Part shown: piece by piece, positions 758-58,970 of the stretch
How positions within the stretch are numbered: position 1 is the first letter of the stretch
How the letters are laid out: the number at the start of each line of letters is the position of its first letter
Assembly (NCBI GenBank): GCA_052033935.1
Contig: JBPOJE010000073.1
Coordinates: forward strand, 2,159-66,158
Length of the DNA stretch: 64,000 bases
From: Armatimonadota bacterium
Lineage (GTDB): Bacteria > Armatimonadota > UBA5829 > DSUL01
Direction of reading: 5' to 3'
Notes under the pieces: generated by a model
Database searches by the model: none
Seen by the model: the letters and a program-made list of their open reading frames with translations, nothing else
Told to the model about the DNA's origin: nothing
Program-made: the position numbers and the translations under genes

Positions 758-898
758 TTTTCTCCGGGTGCCATGGTAGCCGAACAGCCGTCCGCGGTCA
801 ACGAGAAGTGGTCACAGCGGGCCGCCATGTGGTTTCATCAGGGTTACCCGGACAGGGGCTCCGGAAACAGGAATTGATCAAGGAGACTGAATTCATCA

Positions 899-1285
899 AT
901 GGAGTCAACCGAAAAGACATTTGTGGAAAGTGAATACCGCGCGGCCATCAACGAGGACCATCGCCCGTGGGGCAAGTTCCGCGAGTTCCCCATTGAAGGC
1001 GTCGGCGCGGCCAAAATCATCACGGTCAACCCCGGCGGAGAGTTGTCGCTTCAGTACCACAGCCGCCGGGCGGAGTTCTGGGTGGCGCTTGACGAAGGGC
1101 TCGAGATCACCCTGGGCGGCCGCGTGTGGGTGGCGGAACCGAACGAGGAGATATTCATACCGCAGGGCGCGAAGCACCGCCTGCGCGGAGTGGGCGAAAA
1201 TCCGGGGCGCATAATGGAGTTCTGGCTTGGCAACTCAGCGGAGGATGATATCGTGCGCCTGGAGGATGCTTACGGTCGGGAATAA
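899..1285 (+). CDS. cupin-fold protein, mannose-6-phosphate isomerase (type II PMI) C-terminal-like
   Basis: 128-aa ORF. PWGKFREF...AKIITVNPGGELSLQYHSRRAEFWVAL...EIFIPQGAKHRL matches the cupin_2 / PMI C-terminal signature. A 6-nt gap to the next ORF suggests an operon. Confidence 0.75.
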   Translation: MESTEKTFVESEYRAAINEDHRPWGKFREFPIEGVGAAKIITVNPGGELSLQYHSRRAEFWVALDEGLEITLGGRVWVAEPNEEIFIPQGAKHRLRGVGENPGRIMEFWLGNSAEDDIVRLEDAYGRE

Positions 1286-1291
1286 AGTGCG

Positions 1292-3685
1292 GTGATACAG
1301 GTCGGCACGCTGGCCGAACTGATTGAGAGGGCCGCCGGCCGCCACCTCCGGAATGTGGCCTATATCTGGCGGCCGCTCTACCACGCCCGCCGGTTCACGT
1401 ACGCCGAGGTGTACAGCATGGCGCGGGGCGCGGTGGCCGTGCCGCTGATGGCGCAGAGCCAGCCCGATTTCATTTCGCGCATCGCAGGCATCACGGGCGC
1501 TTCCGCTGTCTTCAAATCGTCCGCGCTGAAAGCGGACATGGGGGGAATCCCTGTCTTCGATGTCGAGCAGGCCGTTCCGCGAGACCCCACGGAGCCTGTC
1601 GAGCCTCCGCCCAGGCTGGAACCCGATGACATTGCCCAGATTCTGTTCACATCTGGCACCACGGACAACCCCAGGGGTGTGCCTCTCACGCACCGGAACT
1701 TGCTCTCGAACGTCCGGGACATCAACCGGCTGGAGCTTGTTCGTCCCCGCGACCACCTGATGTCCATCCTCCCGCTCGCGCATTCGTTCGAGCAGGTGGC
1801 ATTGCTGTTCACCTCCATCGCGCTGGGTCTCACGGTGACGCAGGCGGCGTCGCTGTCCGGCCCGCACGTGCGGATGAACATGGTTGAGGACCGGCCGAGC
1901 GTGCTGGTGAGCGTCCCCGAGTTTCTGAAGCTGGCTCTGGGTCAGATCGAGGCCAGAGCCTCCGATACGGGTGGCACGGCGAAGCTGGAGCGGCTCTTCC
2001 GCATCGGCCCGAAGCTTCCGTTCTGGCTGCGCAGGGCGCTTGCGCGGCCGGTGCTGCGCAACTTTGGCGGCCGCCTGCGGCTCGCGATTTCCGGCGGCTC
2101 GGCGCTCGACGCACGCGTGGGGCAGAAATGGGAGGCGCTCGGTGTTATTCAGGGCTACGGTGCCACCGAATGCTTGCCCGTCATAACAGCCAACAGCCTG
2201 AAAGACAACCTGCTGAGTTCGGTCGGCAAGCCGTTGCCGAGCGTGGAGGTGAAGCTTGCGGACGATGGCGAGATCCTCGTGCGCGGGCCGAATGTGGCCG
2301 CTGGCTACTGGAACCGTTCCGGCGAGACACCCGAGCGCTTTCGCGATGGGTGGTATTACACGGACGATCTGGGTGAGCGGGACGGCGGCGGCCGCCTGCA
2401 CATCCGGGGTCGCAAGAAGTTCCTGATCGTGACCCCGGCGGGCGAGAACGTCTATCCGGAGGATATCGAAAGCGAGCTGTGCGAGGAGCACGAAGTCCGG
2501 GACGCCACCGTTCTCGCCTGGAAGCCGGGCGGGGTGTTCGAGATCCACACTGTTCTGCTTCTCAACCCCGAGCACGTGGGCGTCGATGCCCGCGCCATCG
2601 CCGAGCGGGTCAACGCAAGGCTTCAGCCTCACCAGCGTGTGCAGGGGGCGTCCGTGTGGGACACCGAGGATTTCCCCCGCACGGTCACGCGCAAAGTCAA
2701 GAAGAACGGCGTCCGCGCCTGGCTCGAGACCCGCGCCTCCGGTGCCGCTGCGGTCTCGACCGTTCCGGCGGGGGCCGTCGAGCGTGCTATCGCGCGGATT
2801 GCGGGCGTCCCGGCGGAACAGGTGTTGCCGGATATGCGGCTTGAGGCCGGCCTGAAGCTGGATTTTCTGGCAAGGGTCACACTCGCGGGCACCATCGAGG
2901 AATCCACGGGCCTTGTGCTGGACGAAGGCCAGGTCGGGCCGGAAACAACCGTCGCCGAACTCCGTGAGCACCTGAGCAAGAGAGAGCAAAAGCAGGAGCG
3001 GCACGTGTTCAACGAAGCCCCGCTGACACCCTGTGGCGTCGCGCAGCGGGCAATCTGTCAGAAGGCGCTCATCTGGCCCATCGCCTCGTACTTTGCGCCA
3101 ACAACCGTGACGGGCCTCCAGCATCTGGATGGGCTGAACGGGCCGGTTCTGTTCTGTCCCAACCATATTTCGCCCATAGACGCAGCCGTTGTGCTCAGAG
3201 CGCTTCCCGCGCGTTTCCACGCCACAACCGCTGTCGCGGCGGCGTCGGATGTCGTCTTCGACAATCCGGTGTACGGGTGGTATTTGGGGCTGCTGGAGTG
3301 CAGCATGAATGTGTTCCCCTTCGAGCGCGAAGGGCAGATCAAGTCGTCGCTTCAGTACACGGCCAGGCTGATGGACCGTGGGTTCTTGGTGCTTCTGTAC
3401 CCTGAAGGGCGCATCTCGACGGACGGGAAGCTGGGGGAGATTCGCCCCGGCGTTGGTCCGATCGCCGTTGAGATGGGCGCGCCGGTCGTGCCGGTCTGGC
3501 AGTCTGGGACGGACGGGGTGGTGCCCGCAAGCGCGGTGACGTTCGTCCGGCCGAAACGCCATCCGGTGCGCATCAGCATCAGCGAGCCGCTGCGGTTCCT
3601 CCCGGGGTGTCCGTACGATGCGGCCGCGCGCCAGATACGCGGCGCGCTCGATTCGTTGTCCGGCGGCCAGAAGCCGCCCGCTTAG
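1292..3685 (+). CDS. fused AMP-dependent acyl-CoA/acyl-ACP synthetase - ACP-like linker - 1-acyl-sn-glycerol-3-phosphate (PlsC/LPLAT) acyltransferase
   Basis: 797-aa ORF. FTSGTTDNPRGVPLTHRNL (AMP-binding P-loop), GYGATE motif, then a helical PP-binding-like segment (EAGLKLDFLARV; conserved Ser replaced by Phe). C-terminal NHISPIDAAVV (HX4D) and LYPEGRIS (FPEGTR) are acyltransferase motifs. Domain order is the reverse of E. coli Aas. Confidence 0.7.
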   Translation: MIQVGTLAELIERAAGRHLRNVAYIWRPLYHARRFTYAEVYSMARGAVAVPLMAQSQPDFISRIAGITGASAVFKSSALKADMGGIPVFDVEQAVPRDPTEPVEPPPRLEPDDIAQILFTSGTTDNPRGVPLTHRNLLSNVRDINRLELVRPRDHLMSILPLAHSFEQVALLFTSIALGLTVTQAASLSGPHVRMNMVEDRPSVLVSVPEFLKLALGQIEARASDTGGTAKLERLFRIGPKLPFWLRRALARPVLRNFGGRLRLAISGGSALDARVGQKWEALGVIQGYGATECLPVITANSLKDNLLSSVGKPLPSVEVKLADDGEILVRGPNVAAGYWNRSGETPERFRDGWYYTDDLGERDGGGRLHIRGRKKFLIVTPAGENVYPEDIESELCEEHEVRDATVLAWKPGGVFEIHTVLLLNPEHVGVDARAIAERVNARLQPHQRVQGASVWDTEDFPRTVTRKVKKNGVRAWLETRASGAAAVSTVPAGAVERAIARIAGVPAEQVLPDMRLEAGLKLDFLARVTLAGTIEESTGLVLDEGQVGPETTVAELREHLSKREQKQERHVFNEAPLTPCGVAQRAICQKALIWPIASYFAPTTVTGLQHLDGLNGPVLFCPNHISPIDAAVVLRALPARFHATTAVAAASDVVFDNPVYGWYLGLLECSMNVFPFEREGQIKSSLQYTARLMDRGFLVLLYPEGRISTDGKLGEIRPGVGPIAVEMGAPVVPVWQSGTDGVVPASAVTFVRPKRHPVRISISEPLRFLPGCPYDAAARQIRGALDSLSGGQKPPA

Positions 3686-3929
3686 TGCGGCAGCTTCTCA
3701 AGTGCTGTTCGTTTTGTGAATAATCTATATTGTGCTTGGAATTCTAAGTAGAAAATGGTATGATAACACGCTCTCAACCCGGAAAGCGGCTTTTCAGCGG
3801 CAATGCCGGCGCCGCACTCACGGGCGGCAGGATATTCCTATGACAACAGCCGTAGTTCTCTCGAACGGTAGGAGGCGTGTCGCCAGGGCTTGCGTCCCCA
3901 GACCGTCATCTGAAAGGTGCACGATCGCT

Positions 3930-6900
3930 ATGACACATCCACAGGCTTATCATGGCTTTAGCTCCGTCAGGTCCCTAGACCTTACCGCCTGCCTCGCAGT
4001 GCTGGCATTCGTGGTCGTGCTGGCCTCCGGCAGTGCGTACGGAGCGCCCCTCGACCGGGAGGCCCACGTCAAGCTCACGGACGGCATCCACGCGTCCGCG
4101 GGCGCGGAGGACCCGGCCTATCTCACCTTCTACGGTGACGCGACGCAGCTTCCCCGCAGGCAGTACAACCTCGGAGATTACTGTTTCTGGGGCAGCGGCT
4201 ACAAGACCAGTGATCTGCACGATGAGAAGCTCAAGGAAGCCGCTATACTCGGCGTGGGGATGGAAATCGCCTGGAACGCGATGCAGGGCGACCGGCCGGT
4301 GAACGAGCGGGCGCCGACGGACCTCACAAGATACGGCGTGGAAGATCGGGTCAACGACTACTTTGGCGACGGCTGCACGATTTCCGCGCAGGTCGGCTAC
4401 ACGCCCGGCTGGGCGAACGGGCTCATGGGCAAGAACTATCCGCCTAATATCGCGGTTGAGCAGGAGGCCCACGTCATGGCCGGGGGGAACACGTCGGTCA
4501 CCCTGGCTCATTCGCCGGTCGTCGTGAACATCCCGCTCTGGTTTCCGCTTATCGTGACACCCTCTCCAGTGCCAAAGACCCGGGTCGAGGATGAGGTCAT
4601 CACGACGAACTTCCAGCCCGACCCGGACCTGCAGGTTGACCTGCCAGGCAGGGTTCTCATCCGCACTTCCAGGAAGCCGATCATTGTCGGGACCGAGCAA
4701 GTCTGGGTGGACGAAGGCGACGGCTGGGTGCTCTGGAACAGGGTGGACAACATTTTCGATGCGCCCCTCGGCGATGCGGTTTACCAGGTGAACCGTCTCG
4801 GCGTCGTCCGGTTCAAACCAATGAACATTGAGCATGGCAGGACACCCGCGACCGGCTCCAGAGTCAAAATCTCGTATGACGCCATTGACGTTCAGTACAC
4901 CGCCGGGGCAGATTACCTGTTCGACAACCTGACGGGCACACTCACGCGAAGGATAGGCGACCTCTCCGGCTTTATCGCCTCTGAAACCTTTGACAGCACA
5001 ACGCTCGACAGCCGATGGCAGTGGATGAACCCGCCCGGGGCCTGGGATGTGAACACCACCCTGGCCGGACACCTGCACTACACCGTCAACTCGACCCCCC
5101 CGGACGGGGTGGGGCACTTCATCTACCAGAGTCTCAGCGGTGCGGGCGACTTCCGGATGTCCGCCAAAATCACAAACGCAGCGTGTTGGGAACCCGGGGT
5201 GCAGAAACCGCTGACCCAGACGGGGCTGATGGTCTATCAGGATGCGCAGAACTGGTTCCGCTACGGCCTGACAACCGACCAGGGCCGCCCGTACCTCACC
5301 CGGTGCGTCAACGGTGTCACAACGACAGCCGGCGGGGGCGGGGAGTACGGGTGGCAGGTCACGGCTCCGCGCTACATCACCGCCATGAAGCACGGAAACA
5401 CCTATACCGTGTACACGCACTACAGGCCCGGCGCCACTGCGCCTGACGGCGATTACCAGTTCGTCTGCACGTTCGACCAGACCCTGACGTACCCGCTCAA
5501 GGTTGGAGTCTCCAGCACCGGTCTGGATACGGCTGGCGTTGACGTGGACGAGGTGACCGTGGAGGTCCCGAGGATTCCCTCCAACGGCAAGGTCGCTGTC
5601 TTCTACAACTACCTCAACCCGGACCCGTGGCTGAGATATGTCCGGGAGACGGTAGGGTATTTCAAGGACAGAATCAAGTACTGGCAGTCGTGGAACGAGC
5701 CTGATCTGTGGATGTGCTGGGCGGGCGGACAGGACCTGCACGCCGTGATGCAAGGCTTGTTTGCTCAGGCGGTCCGCGAGGCCGACCCCGAAGCGCACGT
5801 GATCGGCGGTGGGTATGCCAACGGCTCCAACCATCAGATCGAGACGGTCTATAACATCGCCGGGGCCAACTCGTTCGACTATGCATCCTGGCACCCGTAC
5901 CTGTTCAGCAACCAGGCCCCCGACTCCATCGGCTGGGAGACCGTCGCCCACCAGCGCGCGCGCGACATCATGGCCAGCCACGGGGACGCTGACAAAGAGG
6001 TCTTCTTCGGTGAGATTTCGGCTGGCAGCGGTGTTCTGCAGAGCGGAGGCGGGCTGAACGACCGGAAACAGGCCGACTATGGCGCGCGGCTTCTTCTGCT
6101 GTCGCGCAAGCTTGGCTGGGTAAAGTCGGTTCAGTGGTGGCCGGGAGAGGGCGATCTCGCGGATGTTGGTATGGTTGAGGACAACGAGCACGGCTACCAC
6201 GGGGGCCTCTTCTACCGCATCACCGGGCGACAGCGCGACATATCGAAGCTGGCACGAGTGAATGGCCGCGTCTCGATCGAGGCGGCGCACCATATTGACC
6301 TGACCTACCGGGTTGGAGACCGTATTGTGGTGTCGGGCGTCACCGAACCGGACGTCTGGTTCAATGGGACATTCACTATCGAAGCTCTGGAGAGCGTTTA
6401 CAACCCGCTGTTCGGAACCTCGAAGATCATCCGGATTATTACCAGCCAGAGCGGCAAACCGGACGCCGCGGCAGAAGCGCCGTACGAGGGCAAGCTGGGC
6501 ATTGTGCGGCCGTATGTCGAGCCGAAGCCGATCTTCTACGCCTTCCGCAATCTCGCCTCGAACAGGGGCATCCTCATGGACCTGTGCGACTACGGCGCGG
6601 ACACCCAGATAATCCCGCCCGAGGGGAGCCACCTTCTGAACAGCGTCCGGCTGGGAGTCCGCGACAGGTCGGAGATTGCCGAGGTGACGGTGCGCGCCTC
6701 GCTCACCTGCACGGATGAGAGTGCGAAGCCGTCGCGAGTGGCGGCGGTTTACACGGGGTATGCCGGGCAGAAGGTGACTGTTGTGCACCTCAACCCCGCT
6801 GCACCGGCGCTCTGCTCCGAGCACTGGTCCATGCTGGCGCTCACCCCCTGGTACTTCGGGGTGGTTGGCTCGGTTTCGGGCTTCCAGGGCATTGCCGTGG

Positions 6901-7751
6901 CCGGCGAGCCGTTCACCTCTCTGAACGGGGTAGTTCAGTCGGTCACGATTCCCGAATCCAGCCTGCTGTATGCGCCGGGTGAGGAGTTCACGTTCGAGAC
7001 GTTTGCGGGTGACGGGCTGCATCAGGTGGCCAGGTGGAGTGCGCCCGTGGGCCTGTCAGGCCCGGGCGACATCTCGGTGGACCTGCTCGAGCCGGTCCGT
7101 GCGCGGTATGTGGAGATACAGATCCGAAGGTCCGGCGGCGCCGACAGCGTCGGGATTGACGAGATCGAGGTTCTCGATACTAGCGGTACCAATGTCGCCG
7201 AAGGCAAGCTGTACACGGTGGAGGGCTATCAGGACTGGTTCGCCACCCCCGAGGCTTCGGAGTACGAACTGGGCGAAGCGCGCCATCTGCCCGACAGCAC
7301 GAACGTGCGGCTTCCCGCCGCGGTTCTGTATCTGAAGGGCCAGGGCTTCGGCTACCTCGAGACCACGGACCGGGCCGCCGGTCTGCGTTTCGAAGGCGAG
7401 GTGGATGCGCAGCCGGGCGACCTCGTGACGCTGACGGGTTCGATGGGGACCACTCCGGGCGGCGAGAAGTACGTGCAGGTCCGGTCAATGACCGTCGTGG
7501 GCACCGGCCAGATCGGCTCGCTCGGAATGAACGGGGGCAACCTGCTCGAGCCGATGGTGGACGCGCTTCTCGTGCGAGTCTGGGGGCAGCTGGTGCCGGG
7601 TTCCGTGACCGACAACTCGTTCAGGATCACCACCTTCAACGGGGAGGTCGAGGTGCGGACGAACGCACCGACGAGTCTGCCGGAAGGGGAGATCATCACC
7701 GTGACGGGCGCGGCCGGTTACGATAACGGCCGGGTGATCTACGCTCAGTAG
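3930..7751 (+). CDS. large secreted multidomain glycoside hydrolase (clan GH-A-like catalytic domain with WNEP motif, discoidin/F5-8 type C-like domain, C-terminal beta-rich modules)
   Basis: ORF 3732..7751. Likely start ATG 3930 (MTHPQAYHGFSSVRSLDLTACLAVLAFVVVLASGSAYG signal peptide, GAAAGG upstream). YWQSWNEPDLW (acid/base Glu motif) and FFGEIS (candidate nucleophile) are present. ARYVEIQIRRSGGADSVGIDEIEV is discoidin-like. The C-terminus carries the recurrent module (see findings). Confidence 0.6.
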   Translation: MTHPQAYHGFSSVRSLDLTACLAVLAFVVVLASGSAYGAPLDREAHVKLTDGIHASAGAEDPAYLTFYGDATQLPRRQYNLGDYCFWGSGYKTSDLHDEKLKEAAILGVGMEIAWNAMQGDRPVNERAPTDLTRYGVEDRVNDYFGDGCTISAQVGYTPGWANGLMGKNYPPNIAVEQEAHVMAGGNTSVTLAHSPVVVNIPLWFPLIVTPSPVPKTRVEDEVITTNFQPDPDLQVDLPGRVLIRTSRKPIIVGTEQVWVDEGDGWVLWNRVDNIFDAPLGDAVYQVNRLGVVRFKPMNIEHGRTPATGSRVKISYDAIDVQYTAGADYLFDNLTGTLTRRIGDLSGFIASETFDSTTLDSRWQWMNPPGAWDVNTTLAGHLHYTVNSTPPDGVGHFIYQSLSGAGDFRMSAKITNAACWEPGVQKPLTQTGLMVYQDAQNWFRYGLTTDQGRPYLTRCVNGVTTTAGGGGEYGWQVTAPRYITAMKHGNTYTVYTHYRPGATAPDGDYQFVCTFDQTLTYPLKVGVSSTGLDTAGVDVDEVTVEVPRIPSNGKVAVFYNYLNPDPWLRYVRETVGYFKDRIKYWQSWNEPDLWMCWAGGQDLHAVMQGLFAQAVREADPEAHVIGGGYANGSNHQIETVYNIAGANSFDYASWHPYLFSNQAPDSIGWETVAHQRARDIMASHGDADKEVFFGEISAGSGVLQSGGGLNDRKQADYGARLLLLSRKLGWVKSVQWWPGEGDLADVGMVEDNEHGYHGGLFYRITGRQRDISKLARVNGRVSIEAAHHIDLTYRVGDRIVVSGVTEPDVWFNGTFTIEALESVYNPLFGTSKIIRIITSQSGKPDAAAEAPYEGKLGIVRPYVEPKPIFYAFRNLASNRGILMDLCDYGADTQIIPPEGSHLLNSVRLGVRDRSEIAEVTVRASLTCTDESAKPSRVAAVYTGYAGQKVTVVHLNPAAPALCSEHWSMLALTPWYFGVVGSVSGFQGIAVAGEPFTSLNGVVQSVTIPESSLLYAPGEEFTFETFAGDGLHQVARWSAPVGLSGPGDISVDLLEPVRARYVEIQIRRSGGADSVGIDEIEVLDTSGTNVAEGKLYTVEGYQDWFATPEASEYELGEARHLPDSTNVRLPAAVLYLKGQGFGYLETTDRAAGLRFEGEVDAQPGDLVTLTGSMGTTPGGEKYVQVRSMTVVGTGQIGSLGMNGGNLLEPMVDALLVRVWGQLVPGSVTDNSFRITTFNGEVEVRTNAPTSLPEGEIITVTGAAGYDNGRVIYAQ

Positions 7752-7922
7752 GGTTTTCGGAGAACTCAAAGTCTGCTATGCAGGGGCGCTCCGCCTACGG
7801 GAGGGGCGCCCGCATGGTATCATGAACCTGTCAGCGTGATGCCGGGCAGACGATACCCAGCCACGGCCTGTCGAGGGCCAACGGGTTGTCTGAGCCGGCA
7901 TCGAGTCACAAAGGTTCCTGCT

Positions 7923-10900
7923 ATGTCACGCCTGCCGTTCATTGCTACAGTCATTCTTGCGCTATCCGCCGCTGCGGCGCTGGCTGCTTCGCAGCCGCCC
8001 GTCGCGGGGACAATCAGCCCGGCCTCGGGAGATCTTGAGGCCGGAGCGGTTTACACGTTCACGGCCACCTTCGAAGACCCCGACGGCTATGCGGATATCG
8101 CGGACTGCCGCGTTCTGCTGAACACCGCCATCTCCGGCGCGAACGGCATTTTCGTCTTCTACAATGCTGTGAGCAACAAGCTCTACCTGCGCAACGACAA
8201 CAACACGGCGTGGCTGGGCGGGTATGCGCCCGGGTCGGCTGGCACGATAGACAACTCACAGTGCGCCGTCCACTGCTCCGGAAGCAGTGTGAGCGGATCG
8301 GGCAACAGGCTGACTGTGAACCTCTGCATTCTCCTTAAGGGCAGCCTCAGCGGAATCACACTTTCCGAGTGGCTGTATGCGGGAGACAGGTCGAAGCTGG
8401 GCGACGGCTGGAATCAGGCGGGCTCGATTCGCGTGGAGGCGTCGCCCGCTCCGCCCGTGACCGGAACCATCAGCCCCGCCGCCGGGCACCGCTTCGCGGG
8501 CGTCACGCACACGTTCACCGCGACGTTCGATGATCCGGAGGGATTCGAGGACATCCGCGACTGCCGCATCCTGCTCAATACCGCGATTTCCGGCGCGAAC
8601 GGCATATTCGTTTACTTTGACATCGCGAAGAACAGGGTCTATCTTCGCAGCGACAACAACACGGCGTGGCTGGGCGGATATGCTCCCGGCACCCCGAACA
8701 CAATCGAGAACGGGCGCTGCAGGGTCTATTGCGCCGGGACCAGCCTGCGCGGATCGGGAACCAGGCTGACCGTCACCCTGCAGGCTTACGTGAAGCCGGG
8801 AGTGGCCGGGAAGATTCTCAAAGAGTGGCTCTATGCGGGCGACAAGGCGGGCGCGGGCGACGGATGGAATCAGGCGGGCGCTCTCTACTTCGTTCCCCCC
8901 GCGCCGATGAACACCAGCGTCAGCCCGTCCAGCGGGCGGGTGTCGGCGCCGGGGTGGACGACCATCACCACGGCGCAGTACGACCCCAACGGGTTCGCTG
9001 ACATCAGAAGCTCCTACCTGCTCATCAACAGCAACTTCACGGGGCTCGGAGCGGTTTACGTGTGGTACGACGCGGTGGAGGACCTGCTCTATCTGCGCAA
9101 CGATGCCAACACGGGCTGGCTGGGCGGGTTCGCGCCTGGTTCGGAGAACATCATCTCGAACGGCCGCGCCGATCTGGACTGCGCCGCCACAACGGTTAAG
9201 GGCAGCGCCCAGACGCTGACGGTGGGCTGGCGCGTCAACATACGGCCGCCGCAGCCTGAGTGGGAGTGCGGGGCCTGGATGTATGCGGCCGACACGGCCG
9301 GGCTAAACTCAGGCTTCGAGAAGAAAGGTGACATCGTCTTCGACCAGGCACCCACGAATGCATCGCTCGAGCCGGCGTCGGGCGGCGCACTCTCGGTGGG
9401 GCAAACGTCTGTCCTGAGCGCAAAGTACACAGACCCGAGCGGCGCAGCCGACCTTCGCGGGGCGTACCTCGTGCTCAACACTACGCTGTCAAGCTTCCGC
9501 GGCGTTTCGCTCTGGTACGACGCCGGCGCGGACAGGCTGTGGCTGCGCAACGACCTGAACACGGCGTGGCTGGGCGGCATAGCGCCCGGAACCTCTGGCG
9601 TCATCGAGAACGGCTACTGCAAGATTGACTGCGCCGGAACGGCCGTCGAGCGCTCGGGCACGGATCTGGTGGTGAACTGGAAGATCGAGCCGAAGGCCTC
9701 GCTCAGGGGGAAAGCGCTCGGATCGTGGATGTACTGCGTTGACGCCGCCGGGCTGTCGGATGGCTGGGACCAGATGACAACCTACACCATCGGGAGCTAT
9801 CTCAATGTATCGCTCACGCCGTCATCCGGCGAAGTCCCCGCGCTGCAGCCGTTGTCGCTGACCACCGAATGCCTGGCACCTAACGGCGCGGCCGCGACGA
9901 GCACCTATCTGCTTCTGAACACGGCGGTCAACGCGGCGAACGGGGTGTATCTGTATTATGATGGGCCGGGCAACCGGCTCTATCTTCGCAACGACACCGG
10001 CTCGGCCTGGCTCGGCGGCTTCGCGCCGGGCAGCGCCAACACCATCGCCAACAGCCTGGTGACGGTGAACTGCGCGGGCACCACGGTTCAATCAGCCGAG
10101 GGGCGGATGCGGGTCGCCTGGTCGGTCGAGTTCAAGGCGTCGGACCGGCAGTTCACAGCCTGGATGTACACAGCCGACACCGCCAGGTTCACCGACGGCT
10201 GGGATACGATGGGCGTTCTGCAGGTCGTGAACCCAGACGGCATGGTTTACATACCGGCGGGTCCGGCCCTGATCGGCAGCGTTGGGGACGAGCCGTACGC
10301 CGAGAGCGACGAGCTTCCCCGGCACGAGGTATATCTGGCGGCATACTGGATAGGGCGCACCGAGGTGACACGCGCGCAGTACCGGGCGTTCATGGACTCG
10401 GGCGGATACCACAACCCCGCGTACTGGTCGGGCGAGGGCTGGACCTGGAAGATGGCCAACGACCGCACCGAGCCCGACTACTGGGCCGCGCAGCAGGACT
10501 GGGGCGGCTCCTCGTTCACGCAGACAGAGGCTCATCCGGTGGTCGGCGTTACGTACTACGAGGCCGAGGCTTACTGCGCCTGGGCGGGCGGGTATCTCCC
10601 CACAGAAGCGCAGTGGGAGAAGGCCGCGCGCTGGACGGGCAGCACGGCGAACGCGTACCCGTGGGGCGATGTGTGGGATCCGGAGAAGTGCAACAACTTC
10701 CACGACCGGAACCTGGCCGGGGGCGGGTATCAGGGCTATCAGACGGCGGCGGTGGGCAGCTACCCTGCCGGGGCAAGCCCGTACGGATGCCACGACATGG
10801 CCGGGAATGCGTGGGAATGGTGTCAGGACTGGTACGTTTCGTATCCGGGCAGCAGCGCTCCGTTTGACTTCACCGGTGCCTACCGCGTGGTGCGCGGCGG

Positions 10901-11000
10901 CGGGTGGGACTACGGACTGGACGGCGCGCGCTCGGCGAACCGGGCCTACTACGCCCCCGTCAACCGCTGGCACGACTGCGGATTCCGCCTGGCCAGGTAG
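7923..11000 (+). CDS. secreted protein with five tandem ~150-aa repeats and a C-terminal FGE-sulfatase (SUMF1/DUF323) fold domain
   Basis: ORF 7836..11000. Probable start ATG 7923 (MSRLPFIATVILALSAAAALAAS signal, AAAGG RBS). The C-terminus reads YLAAYWIGRTEVTRAQYRAFMDSGGY...GCHDMAGNAWEWCQDWY...YRVVRGGGWDY...WHDCGFRLAR, typical of the FGE-sulfatase fold. The canonical catalytic Cys pair of true FGEs is not evident. Confidence 0.75.
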   Translation: MSRLPFIATVILALSAAAALAASQPPVAGTISPASGDLEAGAVYTFTATFEDPDGYADIADCRVLLNTAISGANGIFVFYNAVSNKLYLRNDNNTAWLGGYAPGSAGTIDNSQCAVHCSGSSVSGSGNRLTVNLCILLKGSLSGITLSEWLYAGDRSKLGDGWNQAGSIRVEASPAPPVTGTISPAAGHRFAGVTHTFTATFDDPEGFEDIRDCRILLNTAISGANGIFVYFDIAKNRVYLRSDNNTAWLGGYAPGTPNTIENGRCRVYCAGTSLRGSGTRLTVTLQAYVKPGVAGKILKEWLYAGDKAGAGDGWNQAGALYFVPPAPMNTSVSPSSGRVSAPGWTTITTAQYDPNGFADIRSSYLLINSNFTGLGAVYVWYDAVEDLLYLRNDANTGWLGGFAPGSENIISNGRADLDCAATTVKGSAQTLTVGWRVNIRPPQPEWECGAWMYAADTAGLNSGFEKKGDIVFDQAPTNASLEPASGGALSVGQTSVLSAKYTDPSGAADLRGAYLVLNTTLSSFRGVSLWYDAGADRLWLRNDLNTAWLGGIAPGTSGVIENGYCKIDCAGTAVERSGTDLVVNWKIEPKASLRGKALGSWMYCVDAAGLSDGWDQMTTYTIGSYLNVSLTPSSGEVPALQPLSLTTECLAPNGAAATSTYLLLNTAVNAANGVYLYYDGPGNRLYLRNDTGSAWLGGFAPGSANTIANSLVTVNCAGTTVQSAEGRMRVAWSVEFKASDRQFTAWMYTADTARFTDGWDTMGVLQVVNPDGMVYIPAGPALIGSVGDEPYAESDELPRHEVYLAAYWIGRTEVTRAQYRAFMDSGGYHNPAYWSGEGWTWKMANDRTEPDYWAAQQDWGGSSFTQTEAHPVVGVTYYEAEAYCAWAGGYLPTEAQWEKAARWTGSTANAYPWGDVWDPEKCNNFHDRNLAGGGYQGYQTAAVGSYPAGASPYGCHDMAGNAWEWCQDWYVSYPGSSAPFDFTGAYRVVRGGGWDYGLDGARSANRAYYAPVNRWHDCGFRLAR
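7992..10233 (+). repeat. five in-frame tandem repeats (~440-456 bp each) inside the FGE-domain gene
   Basis: Protein repeats share TISPASG...YTFTATF(E/D)DP(D/E)G(F/Y)(A/E)DI(R/A)DCR(V/I)LLNTAISGANGIFV...LYLRNDNNTAWLGGYAPG...C.G...GSG.RLTV...EWLYAGD..G.GDGWNQAG. Copies 1 and 2 are also highly similar at the nucleotide level. Unit starts are near 7992, 8449, 8894, 9341 and 9796. Confidence 0.8.
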
Positions 11001-11009
11001 CGCTCTCGC

Positions 11010-11660
11010 TCAGGGCAAGCAGATACTGACGCCCTCCGAGTGCAGGTAGGCCTGCGCCATCAGCCCGAGCAGCATCACCAGCCAGAAGAACTGGTGGGCC
11101 ATCTCCTTGTTGCGGAGCAGCCTCATCAGCGAGAAATCGCCGCGCAGCGCGTCCGCGTTCCATCGCATCGGCAGGAAGCTTGGCACCCGGCGGACGTATT
11201 CCGGAAACGCCTGCGGATGAATCCGCGTGAGGTAGTCCTCTTCCCATCGTATCTGGGCCCGGTACGTTATCGCGAACGAGACCACGAACAGCAGTAGAAG
11301 CGGCAGGCTGTGGACGAAAGCGCACAGCCCAACACCCGCGACGAACGATCCGAGATACAGCGGGTTGCGAGAGAGTGCGTACGGCCCGTCCGTGGCAAGT
11401 TCGGTGATCTTTAGCAGCGTCCCGGCGGACCAGAGCCGGATCAGCATGCCGGCCGCCATCAGCGCCAGCGCCCACCACGCGAACGCCTTGCGGAGTGTCT
11501 CCGCCAGGCTCAGGTCCGGGGGAAGCGCCGCCAGTGTGCGGGCGTTCACGACGAACGCCAGCAGAAAGACGAGATAGCCGAACACCAGGCGCAGCCGGGC
11601 CGTGCGCGGCACCGGCGGCCTGTTCTTGTGCGAAGTGATATCGGGCTCGGGGGGATTCAA
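11010..11660 (-). CDS. isoprenylcysteine carboxyl methyltransferase (ICMT) / phospholipid methyltransferase family membrane protein
   Basis: 216-aa ORF, polytopic. GPYALSRNPLYLGSFV matches the ICMT/PEMT family signature. Confidence 0.7.
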   Translation of the reverse strand: MNPPEPDITSHKNRPPVPRTARLRLVFGYLVFLLAFVVNARTLAALPPDLSLAETLRKAFAWWALALMAAGMLIRLWSAGTLLKITELATDGPYALSRNPLYLGSFVAGVGLCAFVHSLPLLLLFVVSFAITYRAQIRWEEDYLTRIHPQAFPEYVRRVPSFLPMRWNADALRGDFSLMRLLRNKEMAHQFFWLVMLLGLMAQAYLHSEGVSICLP

Positions 11661-11675
11661 GACAGTCTGGATGCT

Positions 11676-12258
11676 CTACTCCTTCTGCTTCTCGGGAGCG
11701 GCGGCGGCATTGAAGCCCTGGTTTCTCAGTGTCTCAGCCTGCTTCTCCGCCTCGGCGCGCTCTTTGAAGGAACCCGCCTCGACCCGCCAGACATTCACAC
11801 CGCCGCTCGGCACCCTGGCGACTCGCGCCGTCAGCCCTTCCGCCCTGATCTCATCGGCGGCTTTCCGCGCGCCGGACTCATCCGGATAGTCGCCCACAAC
11901 CACGCAGTACGATCGGCGCGGCGTGGCGGGCCTGTCTTCGCTTATGTCCACATTCACCCCGCCCGGGGCGAGCGATGGGGGGTTCTGGACGCTATCTTGA
12001 GGGGAAGCAACCGGGCGCGCGGGGTCCACCCGGGGAGCGGGCGGCCTTGCGCCCCCGGGGAGCATCGGCCCGACGAAGTAGTACCCGATCAGCCCGCTCG
12101 CGACGAACGCGGTGAGGACTGCGAGAAACATGCCGAGCGCCCGTCCGGCGCGCCTGCGATCCACTGACCTGCGACTTTCCAATGTCCTCTGCTGCTGTGT
12201 GAAAAGTGGAGACAGACGCGTCCACGCCTCGCCTCCGTAGTGACTAGTGCACATCATA
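11676..12258 (-). CDS. SPOR domain protein (peptidoglycan-binding, division-associated)
   Basis: C-terminus RRSYCVVVGDYPDESGARKAADEIRAEGLTARV...WRVEAGSFKERAEAEKQAE is a SPOR repeat, preceded by a TM helix (MFLAVLTAFVASGLIGYYFV). The track ORF 11676..13523 is an artefactual N-terminal extension overlapping icd. Start is ambiguous (ATG 12258 or ATG 12131). Confidence 0.6.
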
Positions 12259-12518: not shown

Positions 12519-13598
12519 TTGAGCCACAAAGTAACCCTCATCCGCGGAGACGGCACTGGTCCGGAGCTTGTCGAGGCTGCGCGCCGCGTGATAGACGCCC
12601 TCGGCGCGGGCGTTGACTGGGAAGTGATGGATGCTGGCGTTGACGTGATGGAGGCGAAGGGAACGCCGCTTCCGCCCGAGGTCATCGAAAGCATCCGCCG
12701 CAATGGGGTTGCGCTGAAGGGCCCCATCACGACGCCAATCGGCAAGGGGTTCCGGAGCGTCAACGTGGCTCTCCGGCAGGAACTGGGACTCTACGCCTGC
12801 CTGCGCCCCTGCAAGTATTATCCGGGCATCCGCTCCAAGTACGAGAACGTGGACATTGTCATCGTCCGCGAAAACACCGAGGACCTGTACGCGGGGGTGG
12901 AGTGGGACCGCGGCACGGACGAGGCAAACGCGATCATCAAAATGGGCGGCGGCAAGGTCGCCCCGAACTCGGCCATCTCGATCAAGCCGATCAGCTACGA
13001 GGGCAGCGCCCGCATCGTCAAGTTCGCGTTCGAATACGCCGTGAAGAACGGGCGCAGGAAAGTCACCGCCATCGCGAAAGCGAACATCATGAAGTTCACG
13101 GACGGGCTGTTCTACGAGGCCGCCCGCGACATTGCGAAGCTCTACGACGGGCAGATTGAGTACGAAGAGCGCCTGATAGACAACATGTGCATGCAGCTCG
13201 TCCAGAAGCCCGAGCTGTATGATGTTCTCGTAACCGAGAACCTGTACGGAGACATCATCTCCGACCTTGCCGCGGGGCTGGTGGGCGGACTCGGCATGGC
13301 GCCGGGGGCGAACATCGGCGCTGGCGGCGCGGTCTTCGAGCCGACGCACGGCAGCGCGCCGCGCTACAAGGGGCAGAACAAGGTGAACCCCACGGCACTC
13401 ATTCTGTCGGGCGTGCTGATGCTGCGGCATATCGGAGAGGAACACGCCGCGCTTCGTCTCGAAAAAGCAGTTGCAGCCGTGATTGCCGAAGGCAAGAGCG
13501 TAACCTACGACATGAAGCCGCATCGCGACGACCCGGCGGCGGCCGGGACGTCTCAGATGGCGGACGCGATCATTGAGAAGTTGAGGGAAACCCCATAA
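12519..13598 (+). CDS. icd: NADP-dependent isocitrate dehydrogenase (homodimeric type)
   Basis: [24 protein letters not shown]...[28 protein letters not shown]...ENTEDLYAG...NLYGDIISD match the IDH/IMDH family. Probable start is TTG 12519 with a GGAGG RBS 8 nt upstream. The track ORF from 12408 adds a non-homologous leader. Confidence 0.9.
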
Positions 13599-13645
13599 GA
13601 GAAGCGCCTCGCCTGCGCGGCGGGACTGGAGACGGGAGTCAGGAA

Positions 13646-14728
13646 ATGAGCAGAGTGTACAATTTCAGCGCGGGGCCGGCTGTTCTGCCGGAGGAAGTCC
13701 TGCGAATTGCCGGCGAGGAGATTCTCGACTGGCGTGGCAGCGGAATGTCGGTGATGGAAATGAGCCATCGTGGCAAGGAGTTCATTGGCATCGCGGCGGA
13801 GGCGGAAGCCGACCTGTGCGAGCTTCTGAAGATTCCGGACAACTACAAGGTGCTGTTCCTGCAGGGCGGCGCGACGGGGCAGTTCGCGGCCGTGCCGATG
13901 AACCTGCTCCGGGGCAAGACCTCAGCCGACTACGTTCACACCGGGCAGTGGGCCAAGAAGGCCATCGCCGAGGCGAAGAAGTACTGCGCGGTGAACGTCG
14001 CCGCGTCGAGCGAGGACGAGAGCTTCACCTACGCTCCGCCGATGGACACCTGGCAGCTCTCGAAGGATGCCGCCTACGTCCATTACACCGCCAACGAGAC
14101 GATCGGCGGCGTGGAGTATCACTGGGTTCCGGAGACGGGCGGTGTGCCGCTTGCGTGCGACATGAGTTCGGATTTCCTGTCGCGCCCGGTGGATGTTTCG
14201 AAGTTCGGCGTCATCTACGCGGGAGCGCAAAAGAACGTGGCGCCGGCGGGGCTGACCATCGTGATCGTCCGCGAGGACCTGATGGGCGATCCGATTCCGT
14301 GCACGCCCACACTCTTCTGCTACAAGACGCAGGCAGACAACGACTCGATGTACAACACCCCTCCTTGCTGGACGATCTACGTGGCGGGGCTAGTGTTCAA
14401 GCGGCTCAAGACGCTCGGTGGGCTGGCGGAGATGGAGAAGGTCAACATCCGCAAGTCGCAGGCGCTCTACGATCTCATTGATGCGAGCGCGCTGTACCGC
14501 TCGCCGGTCCGCAAGTCCGACCGCTCGCGCATGAACATCCCGTTCACGCTTTCCAAAGACGGGCTCGACGAGCAGTTCCTGAAGGAAGCGAAGGAGAACG
14601 GGCTGATCCAGCTCAAGGGCCACCGTTCGGTCGGCGGCATGCGCGCGTCGCTGTACAACGCGATGTCGGAGGCCGGGGTCAAGGCGCTCTGCGATTTCAT
14701 GCGCGATTTCGAGAAGCGCAACGGCTAG
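13646..14728 (+). CDS. serC: phosphoserine aminotransferase
   Basis: MSRVYNFSAGPAVLPEEVLRIAGEEILDWRGSGMSVMEMSHRGKEF...LFLQGGATGQFAAVPMNLL is the SerC class V aminotransferase signature. 360 aa. Confidence 0.92.
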   Translation: MSRVYNFSAGPAVLPEEVLRIAGEEILDWRGSGMSVMEMSHRGKEFIGIAAEAEADLCELLKIPDNYKVLFLQGGATGQFAAVPMNLLRGKTSADYVHTGQWAKKAIAEAKKYCAVNVAASSEDESFTYAPPMDTWQLSKDAAYVHYTANETIGGVEYHWVPETGGVPLACDMSSDFLSRPVDVSKFGVIYAGAQKNVAPAGLTIVIVREDLMGDPIPCTPTLFCYKTQADNDSMYNTPPCWTIYVAGLVFKRLKTLGGLAEMEKVNIRKSQALYDLIDASALYRSPVRKSDRSRMNIPFTLSKDGLDEQFLKEAKENGLIQLKGHRSVGGMRASLYNAMSEAGVKALCDFMRDFEKRNG

Positions 14729-58602: not shown

Positions 58603-58970
58603 GGGGGCGATAGGTCTCGACAGGGAGCTTTGAAGCGCGGTCTGCGAGTCGAGGCGCCGCTGGCCTCGTAAAAAGCGGCAAAAAACATAAACGCGAACAC
58701 TAACAACTATAGCTACGCGCTCGCTGCCTAACTAAAGGGCAGCCGTCCGGCCCTCCTTAGCTGGAGAGGAGGTCACCGGGCGTTGATAAATCCGGCTTGC
58801 TCCGCCTAGGCGTCCACTGGGGGCGGAGGACTCAAAAAGAGGACTGGCTAGAAGGCGCGAGCCCCGCCCGCGGGGATTGCTTTCGGCGAGATAACAAACG
58901 CGGGAAACACTCGTAGAGGGCCGTGCGTTCGGTTTTCTGGACCCGGGTTCGAATCCCGGCGCCTCCACCA
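58603..58970 (+). ncRNA. ssrA: tmRNA (transfer-messenger RNA)
   Basis: 5' GGGGGCG pairs with the 3' CGCCUCC-ACCA acceptor stem. The T-arm GGGTTCGAATCCCGG precedes the CCA end. The internal reading frame GCGAACACTAACAACTATAGCTACGCGCTCGCTGCCTAA encodes the tag peptide ANTNNYSYALAA*. Confidence 0.9.

Follow-up and report, generated by a model that had tools for sequence, protein, structure and literature searches.

The first kilobases of the 64,000-nucleotide window analysed here (the whole stretch from position 2,159 to 66,158 on the forward strand of contig JBPOJE010000073.1, Armatimonadota assembly GCA_052033935.1) raise the question of whether a seemingly unusual lipid enzyme represents a new architecture or a damaged copy of an existing one. 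The gene at issue, at window positions 1292..3685 (+ strand), starts with GTG and encodes a 797-aa protein in which an AMP-binding (adenylation, A) domain, a segment resembling an acyl carrier protein (ACP) and a PlsC-type acyltransferase follow one another. The initial annotation regarded it as a self-contained lysophospholipid reacylation enzyme of unusual architecture, coupled to a neighbouring cupin gene. Comparison with its relatives suggests that it is probably a recently inactivated allele of a widespread fusion enzyme, a pseudogene in progress whose frame is still open. Judged from alignments, the short ligase and the missing carrier Ser are private lesions of the window allele and not traits of its family.

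The predicted order of AMP-binding, carrier-like and HX4D acyltransferase domains was recovered both by Pfam and from the motifs. The AMP-binding match (residues 44-340, 165.5 bits) covers profile positions 68-384 only, whereas the match in the orthologues begins at profile position 2. The P-loop (A3 motif; 1649..1678, +) lies at residues 120-129, in agreement with the initial description, and reads TSGTTDNPRG where close relatives read TSGTTGNPKG. The carrier-protein domain (2759..2986, +), which resembles acyl or peptidyl carrier proteins (ACP/PCP), yields a PP-binding match at residues 496-561 of 16.3 bits, under the cut-off of 20.8, compared with 29-39 bits, above threshold, in intact homologues. 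The PlsC/LPLAT-type acyltransferase domain (3104..3499, +) is matched by Pfam Acyltransferase at residues 605-736 (67.8 bits) and retains its HX4D motif as NHISPID (N624-H625...D630; codons 3164-3181), its PEG motif (P704-E705-G706) and the VPV block.

The suggestion that the middle segment is ACP-like is upheld by the scores of the orthologues and by an AlphaFold2 (AF2) model of the window protein (predicted local distance difference test, pLDDT, 84.9), in which carrier helices were placed at residues 495-504, 525-539 and 554-562. The best structural matches of the whole model in Foldseek were A-PCP didomains in the thiolation state, e.g. 5es8 and 3rg2; in sequence, the A domain is nearest to acyl-CoA synthetases (8weu, FadD13). 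In the predicted structure the segment is carrier-like, with the fold present, but helix II starts with Phe, not Ser: F525 occupies the N-terminus of the second carrier helix, which is the canonical attachment position for phosphopantetheine.

The lesions were assessed against two intact orthologues, P0001 and P0124, together with 115 further homologues, and against 80 more distant genomic relatives. The window protein is approximately 39 residues shorter than all homologues. No upstream start is possible for its open reading frame (ORF), because an in-frame TAA lies two codons 5' of the GTG, and the homologues begin at the same position (MIQAGTLAEL and similar); the alternative start raised earlier as an explanation of the short ligase was thus checked and ruled out. 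The N-terminal domain is instead short because of a private 111-nt (37-codon) in-frame deletion, whose junction was placed by DNA alignment to the sister strain L001 at 1421..1436 (+), between A1 (FTYAEV) and A2 (GAVAVPL). Microhomology (GGGGCGCGG / GGGGGGCGG) lies on either side of it, a typical signature of what would be a slippage event. The deleted 37-residue segment is complete in 80 of the 80 distant relatives and in all aligned homologues (approximately 195 relatives overall). When the intact orthologue was modelled with AF2 (pLDDT 88.3), the lost residues, 45-81, formed strand 61-65, helix 70-82 and half of helix 37-53, none of them with a pLDDT below 94. A second private in-frame deletion, of 6 nt, has its junction at 2138..2149 (+) (GGTGT[CCGTGT]TATT, with GTGT microhomology) and took two residues (VR in P0001) out of the strand that precedes the A5 motif GYGATE.

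The third lesion confirms the initial impression that the phosphopantetheine Ser had been replaced. The codon at the attachment position (2864..2866, +) is TTT (F525), so that the carrier motif reads KLDFL, where the orthologues have TCT (Ser). This Ser is kept in all 115 close homologues and in 79 of the 80 distant relatives. The sole other Ser-less relative among the approximately 195, L038 (metagenome-assembled genome MFD01476.bin.2.33, contig CAVSOU010000011.1), has Ala at this position and may be a second, independent carrier-dead member. Near-invariant positions are substituted in all three domains of the window protein. With their conservation in the family, these private changes are R31H (99%), G125D (98%), K128R (100% of the close set), S295L (84%), A420T (97%) and D520G (79%), followed in the acyltransferase part by S699L (93%), L723P (76%) and G764S (99%). 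P0001, by comparison, shows no departure at any conserved column. A search of Joint Genome Institute metagenomes for intermediate alleles, using a pattern across the Ser codon, returned three matches only, all identical to strain B.

Intact versions of the gene occur in the same genomic setting. P0001, the top match of the homology search (E=0, 86-90% identity, 100% coverage, with PF00501, PF00550 and PF01553), is an 836-aa protein from GCA_040769165.1 whose DNA is approximately 91% identical to the window; it is syntenic, with the same 6-nt spacer after the cupin, and its gene order runs HD/OB protein, cupin, ligase, 1300-aa protein, FGE-sulfatase protein, PEMT, SPOR, MFS. P0124, from a third close lineage, is likewise intact at 836 aa and syntenic, and is found on dozens of contigs. 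No second copy of the fusion gene was found within the window. When the window is set against strain A, the loss of Pfam score is confined to the AMP-binding (165.5 vs 242.2 bits) and PP-binding (16.3 vs 29.0) domains of the ligase; its Acyltransferase score is not lowered (67.8 vs 60.2), and the flanking genes are equal in both strains (FGE-sulfatase 184.4 vs 183.0, DAHP synthase 240.9 vs 241.2, PEMT 39.6 vs 39.0, HD 41.4 vs 39.2). Given the private deletion, the loss of the Ser and the intact syntenic orthologues, the window copy is unlikely to be the self-contained reacylation enzyme first proposed.

The chemistry of ANL adenylating enzymes, of carrier proteins and of PlsC-type HX4D acyltransferases is well established. 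On the basis of these domain families and of in-vitro data on the ACS and ACP domains of the related enzyme ElbD, the A domain of intact members would convert a fatty acid and ATP to acyl-AMP and would then load the acyl group, as a thioester, onto the phosphopantetheine arm of the carrier Ser in cis, from which the HX4D domain would transfer it to a glycerol-phosphate-type lipid acceptor. In the window allele, the 111-nt slippage deletion strips a core β-strand and approximately 1.5 helices from the A domain, the 6-nt deletion shortens the strand ahead of GYGATE, and the change of the carrier Ser to Phe leaves the phosphopantetheine arm unable to attach. Because there is no Ser and hence no arm, the channelled reaction should not be able to run, and the 37-residue deletion probably destabilises the A domain as well. 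The carrier-dependent reaction has most likely been lost in this allele, and from the observed lesions we infer a loss of activity.

The evolutionary tests, taken as a whole, fit either constraint that was lost recently or constraint that has become weaker or different. Of 60 changes in the window lineage, 7 fall on columns that are at least 90% conserved, whereas none of the 39 changes in the two sister lineages does (Fisher p=0.04), and the seven observed are near the 9.7 expected without regard to conservation. C>T or G>A account for nine of the 13 changes at conserved sites; this strong bias towards transitions is suggestive only of unselected mutation. In Tajima relative-rate tests with the P0002 orthologue as outgroup, the window lineage of the fusion gene was the faster (38 vs 14, p=0.0012; 42 vs 14, p=0.0002), while no such acceleration was seen for the adjacent 1300-aa gene (41 vs 33 and 40 vs 32).

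Several observations weigh against inactivation. Once normalised for the longer synonymous branch of the window, the rate excess is approximately 1.7-fold and not significant (p=0.16-0.24). By three-taxon branch counts, the ratio of non-synonymous to synonymous divergence (dN/dS) of the fusion gene on the window branch is 0.25, compared with 0.21 and 0.14 in the sisters and a mean of 0.23 for the flanking genes on this same branch; dN/dS is only mildly raised and on its own does not demonstrate decay, and for the same reason the damage would have to be recent. The frame is still open, with no stop over 2.4 kb and with both indels in frame, for which the probability by chance is 1 in 9. After approximately 30 neutral mutations about half of sequences are expected to remain stop-free; the missing stops are weak evidence, and the two in-frame indels are mild evidence that selection still acts on the frame. 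The acyltransferase domain appears sound, with HX4D, PEG and VPV kept and its Pfam score not lowered, and the shortened protein was modelled confidently by AF2, although AF2 confidence is not a measure of its stability. Finally, the P-loop substitutions G>D and K>R were not counted as disabling since both states occur among the 80 distant loci: 15 have R in place of the Lys and one has D in place of the Gly.

Much of this evidence would suit a gene retained as an acyltransferase-only enzyme or as a scaffold, in which the A and carrier domains would have become vestigial, the PlsC domain would use acyl-ACP or acyl-CoA in trans and selection would keep the frame. This is a possible but less likely account of the locus. 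The open frame, which some 30 neutral mutations would be expected to interrupt with a stop about half of the time, and the in-frame indels speak for it, as do the intact acyltransferase motifs with a Pfam score above that of the orthologue, and a window-branch dN/dS of 0.22 for the acyltransferase part. That value, however, is not distinctive: dN/dS is similar over all four parts of the gene (0.22-0.31), which gives no sign that the acyltransferase is specially protected, and the private changes S699L, L723P and G764S fall in this part as well. To our knowledge, no member of the family has been shown to take acyl donors in trans. A closely allied proposal, about which there is more doubt, is that the allele is a carrier-dead derivative kept in frame, with the PlsC domain or the whole pseudoenzyme or scaffold still serving membrane-lipid acylation with donors supplied in trans; if true, the window would offer a snapshot of a channelled three-domain enzyme turning into a simple acyltransferase.

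A fully functional enzyme that tolerates its lesions is improbable. Such an enzyme might pass its acyl groups to free ACP or CoA, by analogy with E. coli Aas and AasS-type synthetases, and alignment with homologues shows that the window protein has kept the catalytic residues: the A10 Lys (K468), A5 GYGATE, the A7 Asp, the A8 Arg and HX4D. In addition, Arg occurs naturally at the P-loop Lys position in the 15 relatives already mentioned, and L038 has Ala for the carrier Ser. Nevertheless, the 37 residues that were lost, a core strand and helices modelled with high confidence, are present in all of the approximately 195 relatives, the AMP-binding score is down by 77 bits, and the Ser is essentially invariant. 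It is very improbable indeed that the lesions arose as artefacts of assembly or sequencing in a single metagenome-assembled genome, for although the deletions lie at short G-rich repeats prone to assembler or polymerase slips, the exact 797-aa protein recurs on five contigs (NCBI and Logan assemblies), one of them a Logan contig that matches the window without a difference over 6,685 nt, and no comparable damage is seen in the flanking genes. A recently inactivated allele remains the preferred interpretation of the window gene.

The family to which this allele belongs is large, and the A-ACP-PlsC order is a common, already described arrangement, not the novelty that it first appeared to be. 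More than 4,000 proteins match the fusion protein at E<=1e-10. Among the best 120 of these matches, most are 820-845 aa long and 109 carry AMP-binding, PP-binding and Acyltransferase domains in precomputed Pfam assignments. Scanning a single genome for each species yielded 591 genomic relatives, distributed among Chloroflexota, Acidobacteriota, Dependentiae, Verrucomicrobiota, Spirochaetia, Woesearchaeota and other groups. The window protein is placed in this family by full-length homology, by its domain order and by its HX4D and PEG motifs, while both a complete A1-A2 adenylation core and the carrier Ser are missing from it.

The closest described relative in domain order is ElbD of Myxococcus xanthus (UniProt Q1DC43), a multifunctional ether-lipid enzyme composed of a FAR-like reductase, ACS, ACP and an AGPAT-like acyltransferase (PMC9131029). 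The ACS and ACP activities of ElbD were demonstrated in vitro (PMC9131029, citing Lorenzen 2014). The window gene is best described as a lesioned, ElbD-like, reductase-less allele. Both proteins carry ACS/AMP-binding, ACP and AGPAT/PlsC-like domains in this order on one chain. Unlike ElbD with its N-terminal FAR-like reductase, however, neither the window protein nor five homologues gave a reductase or NAD-binding Pfam match, and none of elbB, elbC and elbE, the neighbours of elbD, lies beside the window gene or its syntenic orthologues. The window allele further differs in lacking the carrier Ser and the 37 A-domain residues. Homologues without the reductase have been noted before, the FAR domain being mostly absent from the "ElbD-like homologues" of phyla outside the myxobacteria (PMC9131029). 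A split form, with the reductase separate from A-ACP-AT, was described in Poribacteria and Acidobacteriota (bioRxiv 10.64898/2026.06.23.733905), and FAAL-like domains joined to lysophospholipid acyltransferases have also been noted (PMC8460268). No characterised reductase-less A-ACP-PlsC enzyme was found in a search of the literature.

Two other systems invite comparison. E. coli Aas (2-acylglycerophosphoethanolamine acyltransferase / acyl-ACP synthetase), which acylates lysophospholipids using exogenous fatty acid, likewise combines a PlsC-type HX4D acyltransferase and an AMP-binding domain on one chain. In Aas, however, the acyltransferase comes first and there is no built-in carrier, free ACP being used, whereas the window protein has the opposite order and a carrier. 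An identification of the window protein as Aas was excluded by this order, by the inserted carrier and by NCBIfam equivalog scores far below their cut-offs (PRK08043, 118.8 bits against 886; PRK08633, 171.9 against 1221). A-PCP didomains of FAAL and nonribosomal peptide synthetase systems (e.g. the LgrA initiation module 5es8, EntE-EntB 3rg2 and McyG A-PCP 4r0m) share the thiolation arrangement of A domain and carrier. They differ in that the window A domain is nearest to acyl-CoA synthetases and is followed downstream by a PlsC acyltransferase, not by a condensation, ketosynthase or reductase domain.

The gene preceding the ligase (899..1285, +) encodes a stand-alone, 128-aa cupin that corresponds in Pfam to the C-terminal domain of type II mannose-6-phosphate isomerase (PMI; MannoseP_isomer 77.8 bits, Cupin_2 33.2 bits). 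It is intact, with the type II PMI signature LSLQYHxxRxExW and a second His-containing motif. As the initial annotation stated, its ORF ends, with a TAA stop, 6 nt ahead of the ligase, and the two share a reading frame. The functional coupling that was drawn from this proximity did not survive comparison: the cupin adjoins the ligase only in the three closest lineages, is separated from it in a 67%-identical relative by two AhpC/TSA (peroxiredoxin) genes, is absent in two Armatimonadota relatives at approximately 53% identity, and lies within 4 kb of the fusion gene at none of the 80 distant loci. The adjacency is local synteny, not functional coupling or a conserved operon, and a conserved cupin-ligase partnership was ruled out on these grounds. 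A read-through fusion of the two ORFs was also rejected, since intact orthologues have the same stop and 6-nt spacer and the 67%-identical relative has two further genes between them.

The cupin and the ligase also lie in a region of uneven divergence. The sister strains L001 and L003 are identical over 22.5 kb except for a patch of approximately 8% divergence over the cupin and the first ~670 ligase codons (positions 9500-12000, corresponding to window ~790-3290), and a second divergent patch within the 1300-aa gene (13000-14000; window ~4180-5180); this pattern points to recent imports by homologous recombination at the locus. The synonymous divergence (dS) of the window from L001 and L003 is 0.05-0.10 in the cupin and 5' ligase vs 0.17-0.25 in the flanks. 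A transglutaminase-core gene upstream of where the window begins (L002 1-567 / L001 6099-7565) has diverged far beyond its neighbours between the window strain and its sisters, with dS of 0.42 and only 186 of 488 codons alignable.

Downstream of the ligase, the gene of 1300-1339 aa (3732-7751, +), whose orthologues carry no recorded Pfam family, diverges quickly between strains (dS 0.25, dN/dS 0.28) and is kept in this position even in the 67%-identical relative. It is followed by a 1054-aa ORF (7836-11000, +) with at least five tandem repeats of approximately 150 aa (ISPASG...YTFTATFEDPDGYADI...LYLRNDNNTAWLGGYAPGS), for which no Pfam match was obtained, and a C-terminal FGE-sulfatase/SUMF1-like domain (184 bits). 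Farther along the window, at 58603-58970 (+), lies a transfer-messenger RNA gene with the tag peptide ANTNNYSYALAA.

The significance of these results is chiefly that of a correction: the apparent new architecture would reflect damage, private to this strain, in a fusion family that is common and had been noted before, and the cupin is incidental. The window allele would provide a clean natural case of early gene decay or domain loss without disruption of the frame, in a protein that automatic annotation would label an intact "AMP-binding protein". The reductase-less A-ACP-PlsC family itself is widespread and, outside ElbD, biochemically little studied. In lineages such as Dependentiae, Patescibacteria and Woesearchaeota, where the family is common, a single protein of this kind could carry scavenged fatty acid through to phospholipid.

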